Part shown: positions 16,189-38,127 of the stretch, piece after piece
Layout of the letters: each line of letters opens with the position of its first letter
How positions within the stretch are numbered: the stretch's first letter is position 1
DNA from: a virus
Taxonomy: Duplodnaviria; Caudoviricetes
Reading direction: 5' to 3' (one strand)
DNA: 44,335 nt
Virus record (IMG/VR): IMGVR_UViG_3300032103_000228
Coordinates: 1-44,335 of that record
The notes under the pieces: model-generated
Told to the model about the DNA's origin: nothing
Seen by the model: the letters and a program-made list of their open reading frames with translations, nothing else
The model's database searches: none
Made by a program: the position numbers and the translations under genes

Positions 16189-16221
16189 TTTGTTTACAAC
16201 CGCGCGCGGTTGCGGTATTGT
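16189..16221 (+). promoter_or_regulatory. Class A promoter
   Basis: TTTGTTTACA-N14-CGG-TATTGT; GTG 5 nt downstream (16227). Confidence 0.75.
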
Positions 16222-16226
16222 CCATC

Positions 16227-17393
16227 GTGAACAACGCTCTTCCATTTAGTGTCGGCTGGGAGCTGGAGTTTGCACTGCGTGACGCAGACAGGCTGCGGAC
16301 GATTTCAAACACCATGTTTCGCGCTGGTATTGACAATGACTGCTACGGGCGCTGGCGCCGGTCGCCTGTCTCTGCGGAAAAGTGGGACTTGAAGACCGAC
16401 TCAAGCTGTGGTATCACGCCCGGTGCGGTCGGTTTCGAGGCAGTCAGCCCGGTGATCTACAACTACACCGACTTGACCCATCACGCGACAGCCGCACCGC
16501 TGATTCGGCGCAACGGCGCCATCATCAATGAACGTTGCGGGCTTCACGTCCACATGGGTTTGGCGCAGCACCCTGACTACTCTCCAGCGGCCGTGGACCG
16601 TCTGATTCGCTTTCTGAACCGTTACGAGGCGGCCTTCTTCATGTTGGTGCCCGTGACTCGCAGGAGCAACCCGTATTGTAAGCCTATCCCCATCCCCATC
16701 GCGGACCGAGTTCGCCGGACCCACGGCAACATGGACATTGGCATGGCGTGGGCCGACAAGAATACCTGGGTCAATTTCCAGACTCTCCCGCGCATCGGCA
16801 CGGTTGAATTTCGGCTGTTCCCCGGAACGCTGGACAAAAACGAGATTGTGGGCACGGTGATGTTCCTTCAGCAGGTGATGGAGTGCGTGATTTCGCGCGG
16901 GAAAGAAGTTCAGTGGGGAAAGGCGCGCGCCAAAGACAGTCGGATGCTTTTCTACACCATGCTCCAGCAGGCAGGTTTCTATGGCAAGGATTTTGACCCT
17001 GACCGTTTGAAAATCGCGCGCAAGTGGGCAACCAGCCACTTCGGCAAGGAAAACCGTGGGACTGACCCAGTGGTCGAACCTGTCCCTGCTCCTGAACTTC
17101 GCGGACACAGCGGCGGAAACGTATTTAGCGCAGAGCCGACATCGACAACCGAGGAACCGCCGCGTCGACCTCGTCGTCCGTTTCGGGCAGCTGGGACTCA
17201 CACAGGCCGGTTGTCCGCGGTGACCCCGACTCCTCAAACGAGTCCAATGGATCAGACAACCGCCCAGTCGACGACGGCGGTGACCCCGGTGTGGACTGAC
17301 GTGGACGCGACGTCGGGGACCGTCCATGAAGTCATCTTTCAGACCGAAGACGACTTTGCTCCCAACTCAGACAATGAACCGAGACCACTATGA
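16227..17393 (+). CDS. Putative amidoligase (COOH-NH2 ligase, Amidoligase_2-like)
   Basis: VGWELEF, WDLKTDSS, FEAVSP, NERCGLHVH, YCK, WVN, TVEFRLFPGT; low-complexity C-tail. Confidence 0.88.
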   Translation: MNNALPFSVGWELEFALRDADRLRTISNTMFRAGIDNDCYGRWRRSPVSAEKWDLKTDSSCGITPGAVGFEAVSPVIYNYTDLTHHATAAPLIRRNGAIINERCGLHVHMGLAQHPDYSPAAVDRLIRFLNRYEAAFFMLVPVTRRSNPYCKPIPIPIADRVRRTHGNMDIGMAWADKNTWVNFQTLPRIGTVEFRLFPGTLDKNEIVGTVMFLQQVMECVISRGKEVQWGKARAKDSRMLFYTMLQQAGFYGKDFDPDRLKIARKWATSHFGKENRGTDPVVEPVPAPELRGHSGGNVFSAEPTSTTEEPPRRPRRPFRAAGTHTGRLSAVTPTPQTSPMDQTTAQSTTAVTPVWTDVDATSGTVHEVIFQTEDDFAPNSDNEPRPL

Positions 17394-21680: not shown

Positions 21681-22922
21681 TCATGGTATTTGTCCGAGGC
21701 GGATGACGGTGACTCCTGCCGCGTCAGGGATGTAGCGGTGGGGGTCAAGCACGACAGAGCCGCGCGGAAAATTGAACCCGCGGAACTCGCGGTGCTTGGT
21801 GCCGATGAGGTAGACTGCCTTCTTTAGTTCAAGCGTGCCGGCGTCAACGTGTGGGTCCCAGATGACACAGTCAAACCCGTCGCGCCGGAGAAGTTCGGCG
21901 CAAAGGAGCGCAGGGCTTCCGGTGGTAATGTTGGTTTCGGGTTTGAACGACTTGCCCAGGATGATCTTCGGCAAGTCGTACTGCTTCATCAGGTTGACCA
22001 GCCAGTGGGCTTGCTGCTGGCGGGCGAGCATCAGGTTTTCGAAGATGTCACAGCTCAGATTGAGCTTGCGAGCCAGATAGGACATGGCAATGTTGTCACG
22101 TGGGTGACAGCTGCCGCCGTCACCCATGCCAGCGGTCATGTACTTGGGAGAAAGAAGCCGGTCGGTGCCTTTGCAGAGCGCACTGGTTACCGAATCCACG
22201 TCGGCCCCAACCTGGTGGCAGACCTCCATGAGCATGTTGACGAAGGTGAGTTTGGTGGAGATGAACGTATTGTAGGCCACCTTGGTCAGCTCAGCACTTT
22301 CAACTGTCATGCGGCAGATGGGAGGCACGGCGCCGGTCAATTGGAGGTAGAACTTCTGGTAGACATCGATGACTGGCTGTCCGGCTTCTTGATCGGCGCC
22401 GATCAAGACAAACTCGGGGTGCAGGAAATCACGCATGACCGTCCCCATGGCGATGAAGAAAGGATTGTAGACCAACCGGCACTTTCCTTTGAGGACAGGC
22501 ATGACTTCACGTCGGATGCTCCCTGGCAACGTCGTTGAGATGACCACGACAGTTTGGCTGGGCTTGACAAACTTGGCCACGTTTTCGGCGGCCGATCGGA
22601 GGTACGAGTAGTCAAAGTCAGCTCTTTCCGGCGGAAGTGACGTGGTGCCTTCGTATTCAGGGTGGTGCGGAGTTTGGATTGCCAAGTAGATGACGTCAGC
22701 GCGCTCGACGGTTTCCTGCAGTGCGCCGAATCGAATCTTGGACGACGCTAACCAGGTTTTGAAATCGCCTGTGCCGTCAGGACCTGCTTCGCGATGTGGG
22801 TAGTTATTTTTGTCCATCAAGGACGTGGTGACATCGTGTCCGACGACATCAAAAACTCGCGCAAGCGAGACAGCAACCGGCATGCCGAGTTTTCCAAGTC
22901 CAATGAATCCAATTTTTGTCAT
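21681..22922 (-). CDS. ugd: UDP-glucose/GDP-mannose dehydrogenase family protein
   Basis: GFIGLGKLG, YNPFFIAMG, AELTKVAYNTF, GDGGSCHPRD (catalytic Cys), LGKSFKP. Confidence 0.92.
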   Translation of the reverse strand: MTKIGFIGLGKLGMPVAVSLARVFDVVGHDVTTSLMDKNNYPHREAGPDGTGDFKTWLASSKIRFGALQETVERADVIYLAIQTPHHPEYEGTTSLPPERADFDYSYLRSAAENVAKFVKPSQTVVVISTTLPGSIRREVMPVLKGKCRLVYNPFFIAMGTVMRDFLHPEFVLIGADQEAGQPVIDVYQKFYLQLTGAVPPICRMTVESAELTKVAYNTFISTKLTFVNMLMEVCHQVGADVDSVTSALCKGTDRLLSPKYMTAGMGDGGSCHPRDNIAMSYLARKLNLSCDIFENLMLARQQQAHWLVNLMKQYDLPKIILGKSFKPETNITTGSPALLCAELLRRDGFDCVIWDPHVDAGTLELKKAVYLIGTKHREFRGFNFPRGSVVLDPHRYIPDAAGVTVIRLGQIP

Positions 22923-26002: not shown

Positions 26003-27190
26003 ATGCCGAACATCAACTCTACAATGACCTTTGGGCTGGAGCTCGAAATGGTCAAGTTGACCCCGCAGGCGCGGGGCTTGATGGCTCGGCACAGTTTTTC
26101 AACCCACTTCGACCGGTCGATCAAGGGGCGGAATGGTGAAGACTTGCCTGAGACTGTTGAAGCCGGTGGCGGTGTCGAGATCATCACTAAGCCATTGTCA
26201 TTTCAAGTTCGTGCAGCTCAAGACGGTCGTGGAATGACTGTTAACCTCGGGGCGTCGACGGACGCAGTGCGCGCCGTGTGCGAGTGCGCGGCCGAGGTGA
26301 ACAAGTCGTGCGGGCTTCACATCCACCTTGGACGTCCTTCGGCAAGCTGCCTCACGGCGTCAGCATGGCAGCCTGAGCACACTCGCACCATGCTGCTGAT
26401 TGGACTGTCACTCGAGGAGAAGCTGTTTGGGCTTTGTCCACCAAGCCGCCGAAATTCGTCGTATTGTAAGCCGATTCGCCAGTGCTACACGGCAGAGGAA
26501 CTCGGCTCCTACTACCCGATGGGCACGGTCAATCCCGGCAAGTATCAAAACCCAAAGCGCTATTGCTGGTTAAACACAGTGGAAACCCGGCGTGACCACC
26601 CCCGTTCACCCCGCACCATTGAAGTTCGCATGATGGGCAGTGTGCGCCGATTTGACTACATTTTGTCGTGGGTTAAGCTGTGGTGCAAGATTGCCGGTTA
26701 TGTGGGTAACGTGCCCAGTTCGCTGGCCATCATGCACTGCTGTTTTTCAGGGTCGCTGGACAATGACTTTGCGGAGATCAAGCGGGTTAAAGATGAGCGG
26801 GTCAACCGGCTTGCTGAACAGCCTGCAGGAAGACCTGTAGAGCCGACGCCGGATGAAGTTGCGCAAGAGCGCGACGCGTTTGAGCGCGACCTTCAGCGCA
26901 TCATTGAAGACGAGCGCTCGACCGCTCGGAGGTCTCGCCGGACGGCAGCCTGGAATGTCGTTCAGCGCGCGCAGGAGTCCGACCCGTCGAATGAGATTTC
27001 GTCGGTTTCAGTTCCTGATTGGGTCGACCCGGACCCGGTCAACCCAATCAGTGACACTCTGATGGAAGACGGTGATGAAAATGTGTCGCCGGCATCAAGC
27101 CGCGAACCGATGACTCAGACCACTATTTCAGAAAGGGCAGCACGGCTTGCGCGAGGGCTTCGCCGGGCCAACATCGACAACAACACGTAG
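26003..27190 (+). CDS. Putative amidoligase (COOH-NH2 ligase)
   Basis: TFGLELEM, FDRSI, GVEIIT, NKSCGLHIH, YCK, RYCWLN, TIEVR; charged low-complexity tail. Confidence 0.88.
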   Translation: MPNINSTMTFGLELEMVKLTPQARGLMARHSFSTHFDRSIKGRNGEDLPETVEAGGGVEIITKPLSFQVRAAQDGRGMTVNLGASTDAVRAVCECAAEVNKSCGLHIHLGRPSASCLTASAWQPEHTRTMLLIGLSLEEKLFGLCPPSRRNSSYCKPIRQCYTAEELGSYYPMGTVNPGKYQNPKRYCWLNTVETRRDHPRSPRTIEVRMMGSVRRFDYILSWVKLWCKIAGYVGNVPSSLAIMHCCFSGSLDNDFAEIKRVKDERVNRLAEQPAGRPVEPTPDEVAQERDAFERDLQRIIEDERSTARRSRRTAAWNVVQRAQESDPSNEISSVSVPDWVDPDPVNPISDTLMEDGDENVSPASSREPMTQTTISERAARLARGLRRANIDNNT

Positions 27191-27234: not shown

Positions 27235-28284
27235 ATGTGCGCGATTATTGGATGGGCAGGAAAATTGCCAAAAGGCCTGTTGACCCGGCTCCTCGTGGCG
27301 TCGGAAGCCAGAGGCCGTGATTCGACTGGTGTCTCGTTCAGAACTCTGGACGAGTCTGGCAAACCCTCAAACCTTTGCTACCGCCAAGTTGTGCCGGCAC
27401 GGACGTTCGTGGAGCTGCACAAGTCCTTCATGAGCGACGCTCGGCGCGCCCCCCGCGGTCTAGCGCACACTCGACGGGCAAGCCCCGGCATGCCCGTCGA
27501 CAATTTGAACGCCCACCCTTACACCTGGCCCTACCAGCCTTACGGCCGTTACCTGTTTGCCCACAATGGCCGCATCGAAAACTGGGTCGACATCAAGGCC
27601 AAGTGGCTGGATCAGTACAGCAATGAGCTGAATGCAAAGGTGGCCGAGGTCGTTGAGCTGCTCAAGCCGATTGACGAGACCGTCACGCCTGAGTTTCTCT
27701 TGAAAGTACTTCGGGATTGTGTGGCGGGCGCGTTGGTGAAGGACGACAAGGGCGGCGAGAAGATCAAGTGTCTTCCGCTCCCGACCATCTGGTCGACTGA
27801 CAGCACAGCGGCCGTCTTGAAGGACTTGCTGGCGCACTTTTCAAGGACATATTACTTCGAGATCGCAACCACGGATTCGATGGTCCTTGGGCCGCATGTG
27901 GAGAACCGCGACTTTTCGAACCTGGTCGGGTGCATGGCGGTGGTGTGGATGAAGGCCGACAAGGTGTTCACTTACCGATGTGCCAAAGAGGCCATCGTGG
28001 CCAACATCATCTGGAAGTACAAAAAGCCCGCCGATGGTGAGTCCAAGGACGACCAGATGTTGACGGTGGTGTCCAGCACTCCTGAGATCATTGTGGACAG
28101 TATCGGAAAGCTGGTCGACATCGAGGTTGATTACGCTTTCAGCGACATTCGCGAAGGCACGGTCTACGAAATCACCCCGACTGGAATTGAGAGTCAGGGC
28201 AGTGTCCCGTCGCCTGTGGGTCACGAGGACAAATTCACCTCGGACGTGGTTGAAGGCCCTGACGGGGCCCCGATCGCTGAATGA
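27235..28284 (+). CDS. Class II glutamine amidotransferase (Ntn) with a large internal insertion
   Basis: MCAIIG (Cys2), RGRDSTG, AHTRRAS, NAHP, AHNGRIEN, TDS. Confidence 0.88.
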   Translation: MCAIIGWAGKLPKGLLTRLLVASEARGRDSTGVSFRTLDESGKPSNLCYRQVVPARTFVELHKSFMSDARRAPRGLAHTRRASPGMPVDNLNAHPYTWPYQPYGRYLFAHNGRIENWVDIKAKWLDQYSNELNAKVAEVVELLKPIDETVTPEFLLKVLRDCVAGALVKDDKGGEKIKCLPLPTIWSTDSTAAVLKDLLAHFSRTYYFEIATTDSMVLGPHVENRDFSNLVGCMAVVWMKADKVFTYRCAKEAIVANIIWKYKKPADGESKDDQMLTVVSSTPEIIVDSIGKLVDIEVDYAFSDIREGTVYEITPTGIESQGSVPSPVGHEDKFTSDVVEGPDGAPIAE

Positions 28285-31266: not shown

Positions 31267-34200
31267 ATGAGTGACGAACCAAAAGCCAAGCGGGTCTCTA
31301 AGCCACGGCATGTCTTTCAGAACCTAGCCAGTCAGCCGCTGGTAATGAAGGACATCGACAAGTACTACCGTGACGCGCTTTCGTCGCTTCACGGCGTGTC
31401 AGACCAAGGTCGGATGTTGGTGACGACGTTTGACCCGGACAACCCGCTGGGCAACCTGACTCTTCAACCCGGACCTGAATTTGCGCTGTGCCAGAAGTGC
31501 AATCTCTGGGAGCAAGGGGCGGAAACTCCATTCATCAACTTTCAAGGGTCTGAAGACCCGTTGGTGACCGTCGTGGTCGACGCAGTGTCTGCCAAGGAAG
31601 ACCACTACGGAGAACTCGGGGCTGGCGGCACGTCAGCGTTCTTGAAGCGGCTGTTCACCGAGTTGGATTTTGACTTGAGCCACGTGCGCTGGGCGCCAAT
31701 CACCAAGTGTGCTGCGCGGTCAGGTTCACTACCAAACTTCTCAACCAAGGGAAAATGGTGCCGTCACTTTTTGGTTCAAGACCTGATGCGCCACCCTCCC
31801 AAAGTCATCATCCCAGTGGGAAGCGTGGCGCTTGGGTTGCTGTCGCACAAGTCAAATGCGCAAGATTGGAGCGGCCGTGAACTGGTCTATCGCGGGTGGC
31901 CAGACGACTGGTTGACAAACCCGGATTTTGCGCGTCCGCGCAAGCACCCGGCAGACCCAAAAGCGACCATCATCGGCCACCCCATTTTTGGCCCAATTCC
32001 TACCCACCGCATTCCAGTTGTGCCGGTGCAGGCACCCAGGATCGTCTACGCCACTCAAAATCCGCAGCTGGTTGAACGCTGGCAGCGCCACGTCAAGCAC
32101 GCGCTGCAGTGTGCCATCAATGGAGTGCAGCCTCGGGTTTACAACAAGGCCTGGTGGAAGCTGTCAACCGACCCGGACGAGATTGAAGAGGCCTTAATGG
32201 AGCTCATTGAGCACCCAGGCACGCTGGCGGCCTACGACACTGAAACCAACGGGGTCAAGCCGTGGGCGGTTGGTGCCGCGATCGTGTTCATGATGTTTCG
32301 TTGGATTAGCCCGGTGACTGGAAAGCCACGGTCGATCGGTTTTCCATGGGATTATCCGGAGAGTCCGTTGTTTGGCGACGTTGAGCGGTTGTCGCCGGTA
32401 GTGCTGCAGGCCATCTACAAGTCAACCATCGTGGCGCACAACGCGGCGTTCGACGCACTGTTCACTGCCGCAAACGTGCGAGGCGCGCACTTGGAGAGCA
32501 TCGCCGACAGCATGATGTATGACACGTGGCACATGGCTTACGCGTTGCGCCAAGCGACCGGCACGCTGGGCTTGGAGATGATTGCGTACCAGTGGGTGCC
32601 TGACATGGCGGGCTACGAAGAAGACATGGCGCTCTTGATTGAGCTGCACCGTGACACGCTGCATCCTGAAGAAGGCGGCCACTACGCCATGTGCCCGGCT
32701 GACAAGTGGGAGACGCATCTTAAGCCGTACGCCATGGGTGACGTGGAGGTGACCTACGAAGCCAAGGGCCAGATTGAAGAGCGATTGACCCAAGCTCAGG
32801 GGTTCAACATGCCGCTGGCTCACCCCTGCAATCGTGGAAGATTTCGTTGGTTTCGCCCTCCGAGCCGCCAGTGGGTCTACAACAGCGTGGTGTCGCCGGC
32901 TAACCGGACGCTCATCAAGATTATGGGCCGCGGCATGTATGTGGACACTAAGGAGCTGGAACGATTGGAAGACCTGTTCCCAAAGAAGATTCGTGAGCTT
33001 CGCGGTCAGCTCCGCGCGGTTGACCAGCGGGTCATGGAGTGGTGTGAGCAGAAAGAAGCCACCGAACCAGGCTGGGAATTGGACCTTGAGAACAAGACGC
33101 AACTCAAGGAGTGCCTGTTCAACGTGCTGGAGCTTCCAGTTAAACGGCTGACCGAAGCTGGCCGACGTGTGTTTGGAGAAGCAGACAACGTGCTGGCGTC
33201 GCTTCCGCGTGGCGAAGCCATCAAGTATGCTGCGTTGGACAAATACACCTTGAACATGATGTCGGTCGATCACCCTCAGGTGCGGCCGCTCCAGACCTAC
33301 CGCAAGGTCTTCAAGGAATACAGCTCCTATGTGCGCCCGATGCGCAACCTGTTTACCGAGGGGCTTGACAAGACGCGCCGCAAGACCATCCAACACTTGG
33401 CGCGTGACGGCTGTGTGCACGCGAGCTTCTTGCTGACAGGCACGCGCGGCGGCCGCCTTTGCGTGTCTAGAGACACGGAGCTTGACGTGCTGGTAGACGG
33501 GTTACCGGTACGAGTTGCAATTTCTGATCTTTACATGTTTTCTGGTAAACAAGTAGTTACGCTGACGCACACTGGTTGTCTGCGCCCAATTCGGAACTTG
33601 TTTTTCAAAGGTTATGAAGAGATGTTTTACGTCCGTACGCTCGGTGGTCGGGAAATTAAAGCCACCGCCGGGCACCTCATACACGCCGATCGGGGATGGG
33701 AAAGTATTAGCAGTCTCTCCGTCGGGAGTCAGCTACAAGTTGACGTACAAGCCGCGTCTTGGCGTTATTCTGACCGAGGACTCATTCGTGGAGCTGTCCT
33801 TGGACAAGAAGCTTGGGGTGAAGGAGATGTGTCCTTTGACTGGACGGAAAGTATGTCTGAGGAGCAGAAAGATTTATGGAAAGAAGTACGGTTTGGAGCT
33901 CAAAGAGCTTTGCAGTGCGAGATTAGCCCAGTCACAAAAGGGAAACAAGAATGGAAGGAGACTTCCGTCGGTGTCCATTCCAAAAGACGAGCTGGAAAAG
34001 TTAGTCATGGCGGGTCAGTCACTGACTTTAATCGCTCAAAGATACCGAACAACGGAGTTTATCGTTCAACGGAACATAGACTCGGCAGGTCTCCAGAGGA
34101 TTGGGTCTGCGCCGTTGTGGGCAAGGTCGTTGACGGAAGAGAGGATTGCTCAGATAGACACGATGTGCCCGGGGCTGAAAGACGCCTTTCACAAATTTTC

Positions 34201-36744
34201 CACGGACAAGCCAGCGTTTTACATGAAGGCGTACCAGTCGTTTCTTCAGCTGTTGGAAATGGCGTGGTTTTTGAAGGACGCTTGTTCAATTCCATTTTTG
34301 AGGTATCGCCACGAAAATGGCGGGTTGGACGAAGTCAGCTGGACCATGAACCGGTACGAAGTTTATTTTGCTCAGGAGTTGATCGCAGCGGGTGTGCCAT
34401 TTGTGCGAGAGTTCGTGTTTCACGGGGCGAAGAGGGCCGATTTTGCAATCGTGGGAACGAACATTTTGGTCGAAATCGATGGGCAGTACCGCACTTTGTT
34501 GGAAAACGCCAAAAGAGATCAGTTGACGGCGAGTCTTGGATACCAGACAGTACGGGTTTCTCTGAAAGAGGTGACAGAGTCCATTTCAGAGGTAGTCAAG
34601 AAGATTCAAGATTTGGCACAGACACCGTCTGCGAGATCAGGTCGGTTGGTTTGCAGGAGGTCTGGGACATAGAGGTTGAAGGAGACCATTCATACGTTGC
34701 AAATTCGTTCGTTCATCACAACAGTTGCAAAGAGCCTAACCTGCAGCAGCTTCCACGCGAGGGTCTCATCAAGCGGGTTTACACGTCCAGGTTTCTTGAC
34801 CGCGGGTGCGTCTATCAAGGTGACCTCAGCCAGATTGAATTACGGCTTTTGGCTGCCGCGTGCGGCGACGACGCCATGGTAGATGCTTACCATCGGGGGA
34901 TTGACCTGCACTCGCTGACCCACAGCAAGATTTACCGGAAGGCGTACGAGGAGTGCACGAATGACTACGTGGAGTGGCTGCAGCGGAACAACCGGACGTC
35001 TGACGCCAAGAAGGTCAAAGAGGAGCGCAAAGTCGCCAAGTGTGTAGACCCATTGACACTTGTGTCAATCAACGGAGAGCTCCGCCGGATAGGAGAGCTT
35101 CATTCTGGGCGTGAAGAAGACACATTCTATCCTGTTGCAGGTCTGCGCATCCAATCTCCCGATGGCCCGGACGTGCCCATACGTAACTTCTACAGTAACG
35201 GCACGAAACGAAGATTCCTGGTGGTAAGTCGCAGAGGTCTTGTCGTTTGCAGCGAGAATCATCCATTGGAGCTGTTTGACGGTCGCCTTAAAAAGGCTGG
35301 AGAGCTTCGTAAAGGAGATATTTTATCAGGATCAACTAGGATGGTTTCTAAAGCAGAAAGTCCGGAAGTTCAATTCAATCCATTTGGAAGTCAACCTTCC
35401 AGCGGGCCATTTTTCACAAAAGTTACTCCAGAGATGGCTTACCTGCTTGGGTTGTTTTACGGTGACGGTTGTTTGAACAAGGGACTCGTGTCTATTTCTA
35501 CCGGTGGGACTCCGAGCTATTTTGCGTGGCAAGACACAATTTCAGACGTAGCCAAAAGATGTGGATTTGAGCCGAGTATTAAAAGAACACTCTGGTCGGA
35601 AGAAACCGGGTCTTACGGAGCTGTGATATTTGGAAGCACTAGGGTGTCAGACTTGTTCGTTCAGCTTGGAGCAGTATCGTCGGACTTTAGGCGGCGCACC
35701 CTTCAACTTTCAGGTTGGTTGTTAAACGCCGACGATACGGTTAAACGAAACTTTCTTGCCGGTTGGTTTGACACAGACGGATCATCTACACGTTCTGGGT
35801 GCCTGAGCGGGACGGCTAAATCGTGGGCGCTGGTTCAGGACATCACTGTGCTGTTAAACACACTCGGGATTAGGTTCACTGTTGAGCCTTCATGGAACTC
35901 CAAGCACGAGAAATGGTATTTTCGAGTCAATCTTTCGGTTGAAGATTCATTTTCGTTCAAGGGACTGATGCGGCACGATAAGCGGCACAATTTACGCCAG
36001 TCGTCTTACCGTCCAAGAGTAAGTGAAAATAAGGTGGTTGAAGTTATCGAACTGGAAGCTGGAAGCCTAGTCGACGTTGAAGTTGTAAGCCAGAGTCATT
36101 TGTTCATAACAAACGGACTCACGTCCAGGAATACTGTGAACTTCTTGACTGGCTACGGTGGGGGAGCGTTTGGGCTTCAGACTTCACTGGCCAGTCAGGG
36201 CATCTACATGTCGTTGGACGAGTGCGAGAACATCTTGGAGTCTTTCTTTGACGCCTACCCGTCGTTGCGCCGCTACCTGTCCTACTACAAAAACTTCATC
36301 CTCAACAACGGGGTGGCTGTGTCGATTCTGGGACGCGTCCGGATTTTCGAGGAGGTCTTCGGCGACAACGAGGAAGCCAAGGCCAAAGCGTTACGCGCCG
36401 GTTGCAACCACTTGATCCAGAGCACAGCCTCAGACATGATGCTGATCTGCCTGATGGTCATTGAGGCCTGCATGCGAAACGAGGGCCTAGAGTCACTCCT
36501 GGTGTCCACGGTGCACGATTCTCTGGTCATTGACGCGATGCGCCATGAGCTTCCGGCCGTTCACGGGATTGTGGACGAGGTGTTGAACAACATCCCCAGT
36601 GTGATGACGGCCGTGTTCGGCAGCCACTACGATACGTCGTGGTGCATCGTCCCATTTGCGGGTGACAGCGAGGTGGGGCCAAACATGTTGGACGCCAAGA
36701 AGATTTCAACCAACCCTGACTGGGATGCGCTCCTTGCGGCATAG
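31267..36744 (+). CDS. polA: Family A DNA polymerase with N-terminal UDG-like domain and two inteins (~1040 aa after splicing)
   Basis: N-terminal C..C.L...KC...C UDG-like region; Exo DTET, HNAAFD, YAMGD; motif A DLSQIELR, B K|TVNF..GYG, C VHDS. Confidence 0.95.
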   Translation: MSDEPKAKRVSKPRHVFQNLASQPLVMKDIDKYYRDALSSLHGVSDQGRMLVTTFDPDNPLGNLTLQPGPEFALCQKCNLWEQGAETPFINFQGSEDPLVTVVVDAVSAKEDHYGELGAGGTSAFLKRLFTELDFDLSHVRWAPITKCAARSGSLPNFSTKGKWCRHFLVQDLMRHPPKVIIPVGSVALGLLSHKSNAQDWSGRELVYRGWPDDWLTNPDFARPRKHPADPKATIIGHPIFGPIPTHRIPVVPVQAPRIVYATQNPQLVERWQRHVKHALQCAINGVQPRVYNKAWWKLSTDPDEIEEALMELIEHPGTLAAYDTETNGVKPWAVGAAIVFMMFRWISPVTGKPRSIGFPWDYPESPLFGDVERLSPVVLQAIYKSTIVAHNAAFDALFTAANVRGAHLESIADSMMYDTWHMAYALRQATGTLGLEMIAYQWVPDMAGYEEDMALLIELHRDTLHPEEGGHYAMCPADKWETHLKPYAMGDVEVTYEAKGQIEERLTQAQGFNMPLAHPCNRGRFRWFRPPSRQWVYNSVVSPANRTLIKIMGRGMYVDTKELERLEDLFPKKIRELRGQLRAVDQRVMEWCEQKEATEPGWELDLENKTQLKECLFNVLELPVKRLTEAGRRVFGEADNVLASLPRGEAIKYAALDKYTLNMMSVDHPQVRPLQTYRKVFKEYSSYVRPMRNLFTEGLDKTRRKTIQHLARDGCVHASFLLTGTRGGRLCVSRDTELDVLVDGLPVRVAISDLYMFSGKQVVTLTHTGCLRPIRNLFFKGYEEMFYVRTLGGREIKATAGHLIHADRGWESISSLSVGSQLQVDVQAASWRYSDRGLIRGAVLGQEAWGEGDVSFDWTESMSEEQKDLWKEVRFGAQRALQCEISPVTKGKQEWKETSVGVHSKRRAGKVSHGGSVTDFNRSKIPNNGVYRSTEHRLGRSPEDWVCAVVGKVVDGREDCSDRHDVPGAERRLSQIFHGQASVLHEGVPVVSSAVGNGVVFEGRLFNSIFEVSPRKWRVGRSQLDHEPVRSLFCSGVDRSGCAICARVRVSRGEEGRFCNRGNEHFGRNRWAVPHFVGKRQKRSVDGESWIPDSTGFSERGDRVHFRGSQEDSRFGTDTVCEIRSVGLQEVWDIEVEGDHSYVANSFVHHNSCKEPNLQQLPREGLIKRVYTSRFLDRGCVYQGDLSQIELRLLAAACGDDAMVDAYHRGIDLHSLTHSKIYRKAYEECTNDYVEWLQRNNRTSDAKKVKEERKVAKCVDPLTLVSINGELRRIGELHSGREEDTFYPVAGLRIQSPDGPDVPIRNFYSNGTKRRFLVVSRRGLVVCSENHPLELFDGRLKKAGELRKGDILSGSTRMVSKAESPEVQFNPFGSQPSSGPFFTKVTPEMAYLLGLFYGDGCLNKGLVSISTGGTPSYFAWQDTISDVAKRCGFEPSIKRTLWSEETGSYGAVIFGSTRVSDLFVQLGAVSSDFRRRTLQLSGWLLNADDTVKRNFLAGWFDTDGSSTRSGCLSGTAKSWALVQDITVLLNTLGIRFTVEPSWNSKHEKWYFRVNLSVEDSFSFKGLMRHDKRHNLRQSSYRPRVSENKVVEVIELEAGSLVDVEVVSQSHLFITNGLTSRNTVNFLTGYGGGAFGLQTSLASQGIYMSLDECENILESFFDAYPSLRRYLSYYKNFILNNGVAVSILGRVRIFEEVFGDNEEAKAKALRAGCNHLIQSTASDMMLICLMVIEACMRNEGLESLLVSTVHDSLVIDAMRHELPAVHGIVDEVLNNIPSVMTAVFGSHYDTSWCIVPFAGDSEVGPNMLDAKKISTNPDWDALLAA
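33460..34722 (+). mobile_element. Intein 1 (421 aa) at the GRL|S site
   Basis: Starts CVSRDT, block B ATAGH, ends VWDIEV..DHSYVAN.FVHHN|S. Confidence 0.92.
33740..34672 (+). CDS. Out-of-frame (+1) Vsr/DUF559-like PD-(D/E)xK endonuclease nested in intein 1
   Basis: Frame open 33614-34672; HTH-like SLTLIAQRYRTT...V; nuclease-like E...AQEL...REF...RADF...LVEIDG...RD...GYQTVRV; start uncertain (TTG 33740 or ATG 33827). Confidence 0.8.
   Translation: MTYKPRLGVILTEDSFVELSLDKKLGVKEMCPLTGRKVCLRSRKIYGKKYGLELKELCSARLAQSQKGNKNGRRLPSVSIPKDELEKLVMAGQSLTLIAQRYRTTEFIVQRNIDSAGLQRIGSAPLWARSLTEERIAQIDTMCPGLKDAFHKFSTDKPAFYMKAYQSFLQLLEMAWFLKDACSIPFLRYRHENGGLDEVSWTMNRYEVYFAQELIAAGVPFVREFVFHGAKRADFAIVGTNILVEIDGQYRTLLENAKRDQLTASLGYQTVRVSLKEVTESISEVVKKIQDLAQTPSARSGRLVCRRSGT
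35041..36132 (+). mobile_element. Intein 2 (364 aa) with LAGLIDADG endonuclease, in polymerase motif B
   Basis: Starts CVDPLT, CSENH, YLLGLFYGDG and FLAGWFDTDG, ends HLFITNGLTSRN|T. Confidence 0.93.
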
Positions 36745-37083: not shown

Positions 37084-38127
37084 ATGCCTACACAAGGACC
37101 CATCCCCATTTACAGCGGAAACCGCAAGATCGGTATCGAGCTTGAATTCGACGCTGGAAATGCGACGTTCAATCTTCCAGGTCGTCTGCCAACCGGCTGG
37201 AACCGACACGCGGACGGCAGTCTCTACAACGGCAGCGAGATTGTGCTTGAGCCGCCTGAAACCCACACCGACGCGGTCCCCAAAATCAAGACGTTGAACG
37301 ACGCGTTGGACAGCACCGGCACCTATGCCGGGCGCCGGGGCGGAATGCACGTTCACGTCCAAGTTGCCGACTACACGATCGACGACGCCGTGCATTTGGC
37401 AAACCTTTACCGCCACTTTCAACCGGCCATCAACACGCTGGTGGCTAAGTCGCGGGTCAACAACCACTTTTGTCCGGCCTATACGTCGGTTGTGACCCGG
37501 AACACGCTGATTGAGAAGTTTCGCATCACCACTCCGGCGTCGACCCGCAGCGAGGCTCGGTGTTCCCGTTCCTACAGCGTGGTCAATTTCGCGATGATGC
37601 GGTGCAACAACCGCGAAGACCGCACGGTGGAATTTCGCCAGGGCAGCACCTCGAAGCGGGCAGACTGCGTGGCTGGTTGGTCGGCGTTTTTGCTGGCCTT
37701 GACTGACCTCGCCGCGAATGAGCCGATGTGCGAAGCTGCGATGCGGCTGCCGTCTACGGTAGCCGGTCTTCGCCGCGCGATGACGATGGTGGAAGAGTCC
37801 ACGGGCAACCAAAACCTGTCAGAGTGGGTGCAGTGGCGCCACGACTACCTGAACGAAGAGCCCACGCCTCAACTGATTGACGAGGCCGTGCGGCGCATTG
37901 GGACCCGGTGGCACGGCATGTTTTTCGTGTCACGGCAGCTCAACATCAACAACGCTCTGTCCCAGAAAATTTTGGAGAAGGCTCATGAGCAAGGGAAGCT
38001 TGAGAAAAATGGGGTCAAGTATCGTGCGCCTTACGCGGCCCACGCGGAGAACGACCTCAATGAGTTGGTGGACGCCATGGTTCAGCAAGAAGCTCAACCT
38101 GCCCCGGCGGCTGCCGGGGCAGCCTAA
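37084..38127 (+). CDS. Putative amidoligase (COOH-NH2 ligase)
   Basis: KIGIELEF, HADGSL, GSEIV, GGMHVHV, FCP, YSVVN, TVEFRQG. Confidence 0.88.
   Translation: MPTQGPIPIYSGNRKIGIELEFDAGNATFNLPGRLPTGWNRHADGSLYNGSEIVLEPPETHTDAVPKIKTLNDALDSTGTYAGRRGGMHVHVQVADYTIDDAVHLANLYRHFQPAINTLVAKSRVNNHFCPAYTSVVTRNTLIEKFRITTPASTRSEARCSRSYSVVNFAMMRCNNREDRTVEFRQGSTSKRADCVAGWSAFLLALTDLAANEPMCEAAMRLPSTVAGLRRAMTMVEESTGNQNLSEWVQWRHDYLNEEPTPQLIDEAVRRIGTRWHGMFFVSRQLNINNALSQKILEKAHEQGKLEKNGVKYRAPYAAHAENDLNELVDAMVQQEAQPAPAAAGAA

Follow-up and report, generated by a model that had tools for sequence, protein, structure and literature searches.

We report that an intein in a phage family-A DNA polymerase gene carries, in its +1 reading frame, a second gene that ends in a predicted Vsr-type nuclease domain, and we suggest that this nuclease is probably the homing endonuclease of the intein, made separately by internal initiation. 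The evidence comes from comparison of the two overlapping frames among related inteins and from a structural model of the nuclease.

The polymerase gene and its splicing frame

The window (the whole stretch of DNA analyzed, 44,335 nucleotides) is phage DNA, encoding a DnaB helicase, a baseplate wedge protein, thymidylate synthase and kinase, and amidoligases, with PHROG matches for 12 of the 25 ORFs scanned. Its family-A DNA polymerase precursor (31267..36744, + strand) is a stop-free ORF of 1825 aa that comprises a weak uracil-DNA-glycosylase (UDG)-like N-terminus, a 3'-5' exonuclease, a polymerase domain and two inteins; an intein-free relative, P0010, has 1036 aa. Intein 1 (33460..34722, + strand; 421 aa) is inserted in frame at the conserved GRL|S site of the polymerase, and it runs from CVSRDT at 33460 to HHN at 34722, followed by Ser. 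The class 1 motifs are all present, namely Cys1, ATAGH (the TxxH of block B), VWDI (block F), His-Asn and the +1 Ser, so that the splicing blocks are normal, as described in the first-pass annotation. The Pfam family Intein_splicing matched with an E-value of 9e-7, under its curated cut-off. From the intact motifs, we infer that intein 1 is a self-splicing-type insert that would be excised from the precursor. The host frame is not broken into two genes in the manner of a fractured gene or a split intein, since it forms a single ORF.

The middle of intein 1, a linker of about 290 codons, reads as a shadow of the +1 gene. Gly, Arg, Ser and Val each make up 11-12% of it, compared with 4.5-7% in the N-extein, and the GC content of intein 1 is 0.50, compared with 0.57-0.58 in the exteins. 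Pfam found no nuclease in the intein's own frame, and intein 1 is therefore not a canonical bifunctional intein; composition and Pfam scan agree with the earlier description of a G/R/S/V-rich middle lacking a nuclease motif. Intein 2 (35041..36132, + strand; 364 aa) is conventional, and a Pfam match to LAGLIDADG bears out the in-frame endonuclease that had been assigned to it.

A Vsr-type nuclease in the +1 frame

Starting at 33566, the +1 frame contains no stop before the TAG at 34672, and its first ATG lies at 33614. The resulting ORF (33614..34672, + strand; 352 aa) overlaps both splicing regions of intein 1 and is predicted to consist of a helical, HTH-like N-terminal and middle region and a C-terminal Vsr/DUF559 (EDxHD-type) nuclease. 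When 11 control stretches taken from window genes were read in shifted frames, open runs reached at most 120 codons (+1 frame) and 109 codons (-1 frame). Pfam placed DUF559 at the C-terminus of the product with an E-value of 1.4e-5, above the curated cut-off, which upholds the first reading of this frame as open and Vsr/DUF559-like. Two homologs of the +1 protein were found, both of 352 aa and 88% and 80% identical to it.

The structure and profile comparisons that had been proposed for this ORF also returned nucleases. A family profile built from 10 members matched 3HRL (E 1e-11) and the catalytic domain of I-Bth0305I, 3R3P (E 2e-6). In an AlphaFold2 model based on a 10-row alignment (mean pLDDT 74, pTM 0.45), residues 243-342, encoded by 34340..34639 (+ strand), form a Vsr-fold domain that was superimposed on 3hrl (Z 12.5, rmsd 2.2, 91 residues aligned), on 3r3p of I-Bth0305I (Z 11.9, rmsd 2.5, 93 aligned) and on Vsr itself (1cw0, Z 9.8); Foldseek with the whole model gave no match at an E-value of 0.001 or better. 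The domain contains E249, D276, E287, D289, an Arg (Arg293) in place of His, and D302, and no variation is seen across the 10-row alignment at E249, D276, E287, D289 or G290. The remainder of the protein is predicted to be helical, with a three-helix HTH-like segment at about residues 119-162 (33968..34099, + strand) that appears as helices in the model. Matches to this segment were weak (7tz1, Z 5.6; NarL-type, E 0.14-0.45), and the structure search barely probed this part of the protein. Pfam gave no match to NUMOD in the Vsr-type +1 ORFs. As far as prediction from sequence and model can confirm it, the +1 ORF ends in a Vsr/EDxHD-type nuclease domain, and the Pfam, PDB-profile and fold matches, together with the frame-specific conservation described below, sustain the proposal of a separate nuclease gene in this frame.

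Selection acts on the nuclease frame

P0004 and P0001 represent two frames of one element: they fit a single DNA, with 0 incompatible positions, where P0002 gives 52. Aligned to the window without gaps over codons 94-385, this element is identical at 258 of 292 residues when read in +1 and at 185 of 292 when read in the intein frame. Counting minimum differences, we found changed codons to be silent in 83 of 117 cases in the +1 frame as against 4 of 111 in the intein frame; the frame-specific selection analysis that had been called for thus finds the nuclease frame conserved. The same pattern was seen directly in DNA: in 16 of 18 pairs, two of which are near-identical, with cores aligned on the +1 protein, the most variable position was intein position 3 in the N-terminal region and position 1, the +1 wobble position, in the core. 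In three groups aligned purely as DNA, the variable position switched from 3 to 1 at about codon 76-91 and reverted near the C-terminal blocks.

We also analyzed stop codons in the intein frame of the window. None of 43 at-risk codons gives a stop, where 15.4 were expected from local T usage (log10 P -8.9); the zero itself follows from the open frame, and the expected number constitutes the test. In the other 36 nuclease-bearing DNAs, 3-28 stops were expected. By comparison, the locus L062, which has the family nuclease and no intein, contains 28 stops in the corresponding frame and shows no avoidance (28/59 vs 79/144). These results confirm, for the sequences compared, that the double coding of intein 1 is real, and they show selection in the overlap acting on the nuclease, with the intein frame kept only free of stops. 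Both frames are indeed open over about 1 kb through intein 1, as first noticed, and the suggestion that selection holds the intein frame open is borne out by the absent stops and by their presence in L062.

It might be argued that two compensating indels, arising in sequencing or assembly, moved an ordinary in-frame nuclease out of frame. The locus is covered by assembled contigs of one run only, X1, with an 8-base gap at 33797-33804, and runs X2 and X3 gave no coverage; the X1 contigs match the window letter for letter across the covered intein and probably derive from its own source sample. In addition, one related intein, L017, does contain a frameshift. However, the +1 layout recurs in every one of the nuclease-bearing inteins (34 of 34) whose DNA comes from other samples, and two errors cannot yield 290 stop-free intein codons where about 15 stops are expected. 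The stop avoidance therefore rules out compensating indels, and we regard an artefact as extremely improbable; the in-frame nuclease that such an error would have displaced was seen in 0 of those 34 inteins.

Translation of the nuclease

The first-pass annotation had proposed initiation at TTG 33740 or ATG 33827. The TTG (33740..33742, + strand) stays a candidate, with Shine-Dalgarno pairing of -6.9 kcal/mol, compared with -6.0 kcal/mol for ATG 33827 and a weak -3.5 kcal/mol for ATG 33614 (33614..33616, + strand), all pairing energies being computed without a shuffled control. A TTG at the equivalent codon is also found in L002, L003 and L047, without good pairing there. Use of ATG 33827 is unlikely because this codon lies downstream of a conserved L53/F58 motif, which would be lost. 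The earlier list had omitted ATG 33614, which we consider a serious candidate. Over intein codons 52-93, third-position differences number 6 of 42 against a wobble rate of 0.315 (P 0.009), indicating +1 constraint, and the model has confident strands at +1 residues 22-53; these two observations therefore favor ATG 33614.

Related inteins with an HNH-type nuclease, described below, provide further information on initiation. Each of the 22 HNH-type rows examined has a start at intein codon 73-88 that shows Shine-Dalgarno-like pairing (-6.2 to -13 kcal/mol, again without shuffled control); L018, L036 and L050 have a +1 stop immediately ahead of the ATG. Among the Vsr-type inteins the starts occupy no single conserved place, and ATG 33614 has no convincing ribosome-binding site. 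Given the HNH starts with their pairing and the +1 stops before ATG, internal initiation is favored, and the nuclease is likely, judging from these signals, to be made as a separate protein. Alternatively, ribosomes translating the polymerase could undergo programmed +1 frameshifting, generating a fusion of N-extein, intein N-terminal region and nuclease. This could account for a +1 frame that is already open from 33566, for the constraint that begins at codon 52 and for ATG 33614 having a weak ribosome-binding site; upstream of this ATG, at about 33597-33608, lies the T-rich run TTG TTT TTC AAA. However, the run is not conserved in L002 or L003, which have LYFKG and LYYKG, +1 stops stand immediately ahead of the ATG in L018, L036 and L050, the HNH-type inteins have their own paired starts in every row, and the stand-alone nuclease of L062 has its own AGGAGG and ATG. 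Thus, we consider frameshifting unlikely and internal initiation the better reading. No sigma-70-like promoter was found in 33200-34900, RNA folding over the three start regions was not unusual (z 1.55, -0.47 and -1.28), and there were no repeats of note.

A family of inteins with out-of-frame nucleases

We scanned viral contigs with seven polymerases and obtained 45 loci, 39 of which have an intein C-terminal motif; the nuclease alignment, used as a query, matched 78 loci in metagenomes, 30 in viral contigs and 62 in genomes. In the 62 genome (GTDB) loci, the match was restricted to the C-terminal part. Twenty-seven metagenome and viral loci matched most of the ORF, and 26 of these are the +1 reading of an intein of this kind (a count that includes duplicates, several loci being assigned by identity to another locus); the exception is L062. 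Scans of viral contigs with single proteins yielded 0 matches for the +1 ORF and 0 for the C-extein, and the intein query gave one weak locus; no full-length relative was found among GenBank phages.

After removal of four exact and three near duplicates, four truncated loci (L014, L015, L027 and L039), the frameshifted L017 and the unrelated intein L041, 36 related inteins remained that could be read as DNA, their hosts being putative polymerases by their match to the polymerase query. In the +1 frame, fifteen of them (419-505 aa) have a Vsr-type nuclease and 19 (258-286 aa) an HNH nuclease; two are mini-inteins; a nuclease motif in the intein frame was found in none of the 36. Pfam HNH_3 matched all 15 HNH-type ORFs scanned. 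These sister inteins (L004:2204-3037, L016:2147-3004 and 17 others) occupy the same polymerase site, and their +1-frame HNH gene has a conserved start. In an unrooted tree of the splicing regions, the HNH inteins are set apart by a branch with strong support (98/95), and the minis lie among the Vsr type. The two types share one site and one splicing-domain family, and the N-terminal regions of their nucleases are weakly alike (hhalign probability 82%, E 1e-5, 11% identity).

Several members of the family show unusual forms. In the longer inteins of L028 (5220-6734) and L063 (3445-4950), which have 502-505 aa, the N-terminal segment of the +1 ORF is duplicated. In L017 (2440-3319), the frameshift fuses the start of the +1 ORF to the intein C-terminal frame, which reflects an error or a dead allele. 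In L062 (1-1490), a piece of polA breaks off precisely at the intein site (SRTG), where the family nuclease begins without any intein; the 2.8-kb contig lacks the remainder of polA, and no Rfam intron was found near the free nuclease. It is possible that L062 is an intein-less fractured gene, a remnant or a chimera.

Distribution and mobility

Among the best 120 of 278 polymerase matches, 116 had a readable site, and together with P0005 they gave 117 related polymerases, in which the site is empty in 92, holds a shadow-type intein in 13, a mini-intein in seven, a partly deleted intein in two and a LAGLIDADG intein in three. A site compatible with the +1 nuclease motif was found 81-88 residues from the end in 13 of 13 shadow-type inteins, whereas any such site occurred in 5 of 117 extein controls. 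The 13 shadow-type inteins require 12 changes on the FastTree extein tree, and their clustering is no greater than in shuffles (182/500). Empty P0074 and full P0075 are identical over 405 of 405 extein residues, and P0075 and P0099 share 98% identity in the splicing regions at 82% extein identity. Since stretches of extein with and without the intein can be identical, and since splicing regions can be 98% identical in exteins of 82% identity, the spread of this intein family looks recent. The patchy distribution can also arise by repeated loss.

The window's own clade is different. The window and its sister P0004, which has the same intein, share 93% extein and 86% splicing-region identity, and the nearest empty allele, P0010, is at 78%. 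This fits vertical descent without a recent jump; sporadic distribution and lateral spread were thus found for the intein family and not for this clade.

In P0018, P0019, P0075, P0085 and P0099, inteins of the family are inserted at either RL|C or RLS|C, two positions that differ by a single codon (33457-33462 in the window); P0018 and P0019, whose exteins are 99% identical, carry different inteins one codon apart. Unrelated in-frame LAGLIDADG inteins lie within two codons of the same site in P0056, P0112 and P0117. The inteins of P0086 (245 aa) and P0116 (218 aa) retain part of the shadow linker and are likely decay intermediates.

If the nuclease is not a homing enzyme, it may be a nuclease useful to the host (in DNA repair, degradation of host DNA or exclusion of competing phages) that happens to reside in a non-homing intein. 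Strong purifying selection over long distances, a fold common to repair and restriction enzymes (Vsr, PvuRts1I) and the vertical pattern in the window's clade would all be in keeping with such a role, and since cutting a rival's polA would also help the carrier, this reading overlaps with homing. However, 92 of 117 related polymerases do without the insert, including some that match carriers exactly over a stretch of extein, and mini and partly deleted forms recur. Recent lateral transfer between the P0075 and P0099 lineages and the presence of an unrelated HNH domain in the same place in sister inteins also argue against it, so that a purely host-serving function appears improbable.

A homing endonuclease made separately thus remains our preferred reading, and it can be described as follows. 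Ribosomes would read the polymerase frame through the whole insert, whose frame is observed to be open, and the N-terminal splicing region would fold up with its C-terminal counterpart and remove the intein, along with a 290-residue linker that has no meaning of its own. A second initiation, at a +1-frame start within the N-terminal splicing region, would produce the nuclease, which, as the distribution suggests, would cut intein-free polA near GRL|S in co-infections, and repair would then copy intein and nuclease together. Selection, as the substitution patterns show, preserves the nuclease sequence and keeps the intein frame no more than stop-free. It is plausible that the nuclease originally invaded a mini-intein; we put this no more strongly because the trees lack a root and deletion appears to have produced some of the short inteins. 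We also considered that the out-of-frame state is stable and favored, with one ancient +1 cassette, a ribosome-binding site embedded in intein codons, nuclease synthesis uncoupled from that of the polymerase, and Vsr and HNH domains swapped within that frame. The absence of any in-frame case among the 34 inteins, the shared site and splicing family and the weak N-terminal likeness (hhalign 82%) led us to this idea, which we hold tentatively and think somewhat doubtful.

A histidine substitution in the window copy

The codon at 34490..34492 (+ strand), CGC, encodes Arg293 of the +1 ORF at the predicted general-base position. The remaining catalytic residues of EDxHD, Glu/Asp/Asp, are kept (E249, D276 and D302), and the change is silent in the intein frame, where it affects the third base of a Pro codon. 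The first-pass annotation had remarked that EIDGQYR lacks the usual His. The Arg is confirmed, but the loss is private to this copy, since 17 of 18 sequences (relatives plus window) retain His; the Arg letter at 34490 comes from one assembly and from the assembled contigs of run X1, probably the window's own source sample. In I-Bth0305I (PMC3239194), His213 is the presumed general base, was mutated for inactivation and was required for dimer formation, and the spacing from Asp to His is the same in the two proteins (196 to 213 there, D276 to R293 here). By this analogy, because Arg replaces the catalytic His, the window's nuclease copy is likely inactive or weakened, and the copy is likely at the start of decay towards a mini-intein.

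Relation to known systems

By its other-frame ORF, open host frame and selection in the nuclease frame, intein 1 falls among the non-canonical inteins with an out-of-frame endonuclease, which have already been described in preprints of 2025-2026. Among the closest layouts is that of the DnaX intein of cyanobacteria, in which a LAGLIDADG homing endonuclease is encoded out of frame as a +2 ORF (Phillips, DeSimone and Gogarten, bioRxiv 10.64898/2026.09.14.751524). As here, a contiguous intein contains a same-strand shifted nuclease ORF with a putative Shine-Dalgarno sequence, purifying selection acts in the nuclease frame and is relaxed in that of the intein, alleles of the full, mini and empty kinds coexist, and a secondary-invasion model is proposed. 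The DnaX case differs in having a LAGLIDADG nuclease in a bacterial clamp-loader gene, whereas the present family has Vsr/EDxHD nucleases, or HNH in sisters, in phage family-A polymerases. Non-canonical inteins have also been reported from actinobacteriophages, with endonuclease VII and antisense VSR-like and LAGLIDADG nucleases (Gosselin, Arsenault and Gogarten, bioRxiv 10.1101/2025.01.02.630785). In that preprint, a VSR-like (possibly EDxHD) nuclease lies outside the intein frame, a same-strand out-of-frame nuclease occurs and DNA polymerase is among the hosts; however, the VSR-like gene is antisense, the same-strand case is endonuclease VII in frame 3, and its authors typically find the second ORF beyond the splicing domain, whereas ours overlaps both splicing regions. 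Both preprints cite Gorbalenya 1998.

Likenesses also exist to three other systems. In the fractured genes of Dassa et al. 2009 (PMC2677866), a Vsr-like endonuclease gene stands free between the two halves of a split intein, on the same strand and often with a 6-69 bp overlap with the C-terminal half; as described there, the host frame is broken and splicing occurs in trans, whereas here the host frame is open through the nuclease gene, an outcome that the consulted passages of their model do not include. I-Bth0305I (Taylor et al. 2011; PDB 3R3P), an EDxHD homing endonuclease of 266 aa encoded in a group I intron of recA, is likewise reported to join an N-terminal HTH-type DNA-binding region to a C-terminal Vsr-fold domain with the same Asp-to-His spacing, but it is intron-encoded and has NUMOD repeats, none of which were detected here, and it keeps the His that is Arg in the window copy. 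The ShiLan insertion (Arsenault et al. 2025, PMC11855218), a hidden HNH in a phage methylase, also leaves the host frame open across an out-of-frame nuclease gene; it differs in lacking a splicing domain, in its HNH nuclease and in its non-essential host gene. In the full-text literature, with few subscription papers covered, we found no same-strand Vsr-type nuclease in a whole polymerase intein, and the bioRxiv supplements may list one.

Because this layout has already been reported for other inteins, current views are not overturned. Annotation nevertheless reads such inserts as inteins with a decayed middle and overlooks the nuclease, and mobile inteins in phages are therefore probably undercounted. 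A single polymerase site holds full forms with two nuclease types as well as partial, mini, empty and intein-less forms, some in identical stretches of extein, and with this range it becomes possible to test in what order nuclease invasion, splitting, fusion and decay took place. The linker also offers a natural case of a 290-residue protein stretch that is constrained by stop avoidance only.

Other features of the window were observed. Intein 2 ends in Ser-Arg-Asn followed by Thr, so that the usual penultimate His is missing, and the sister polymerase P0004 (93% identical) lacks this intein. The polymerase N-terminus (31267-31900) resembles uracil-DNA glycosylase (Pfam E 0.08), and relatives are so named by their sources. 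Elsewhere, the window encodes three amidoligase-like genes (16218-17393, 26003-27190 and 37084-38127), a glutamine amidotransferase-like gene (27235-28284) and a UDP-glucose dehydrogenase (21681-22922).
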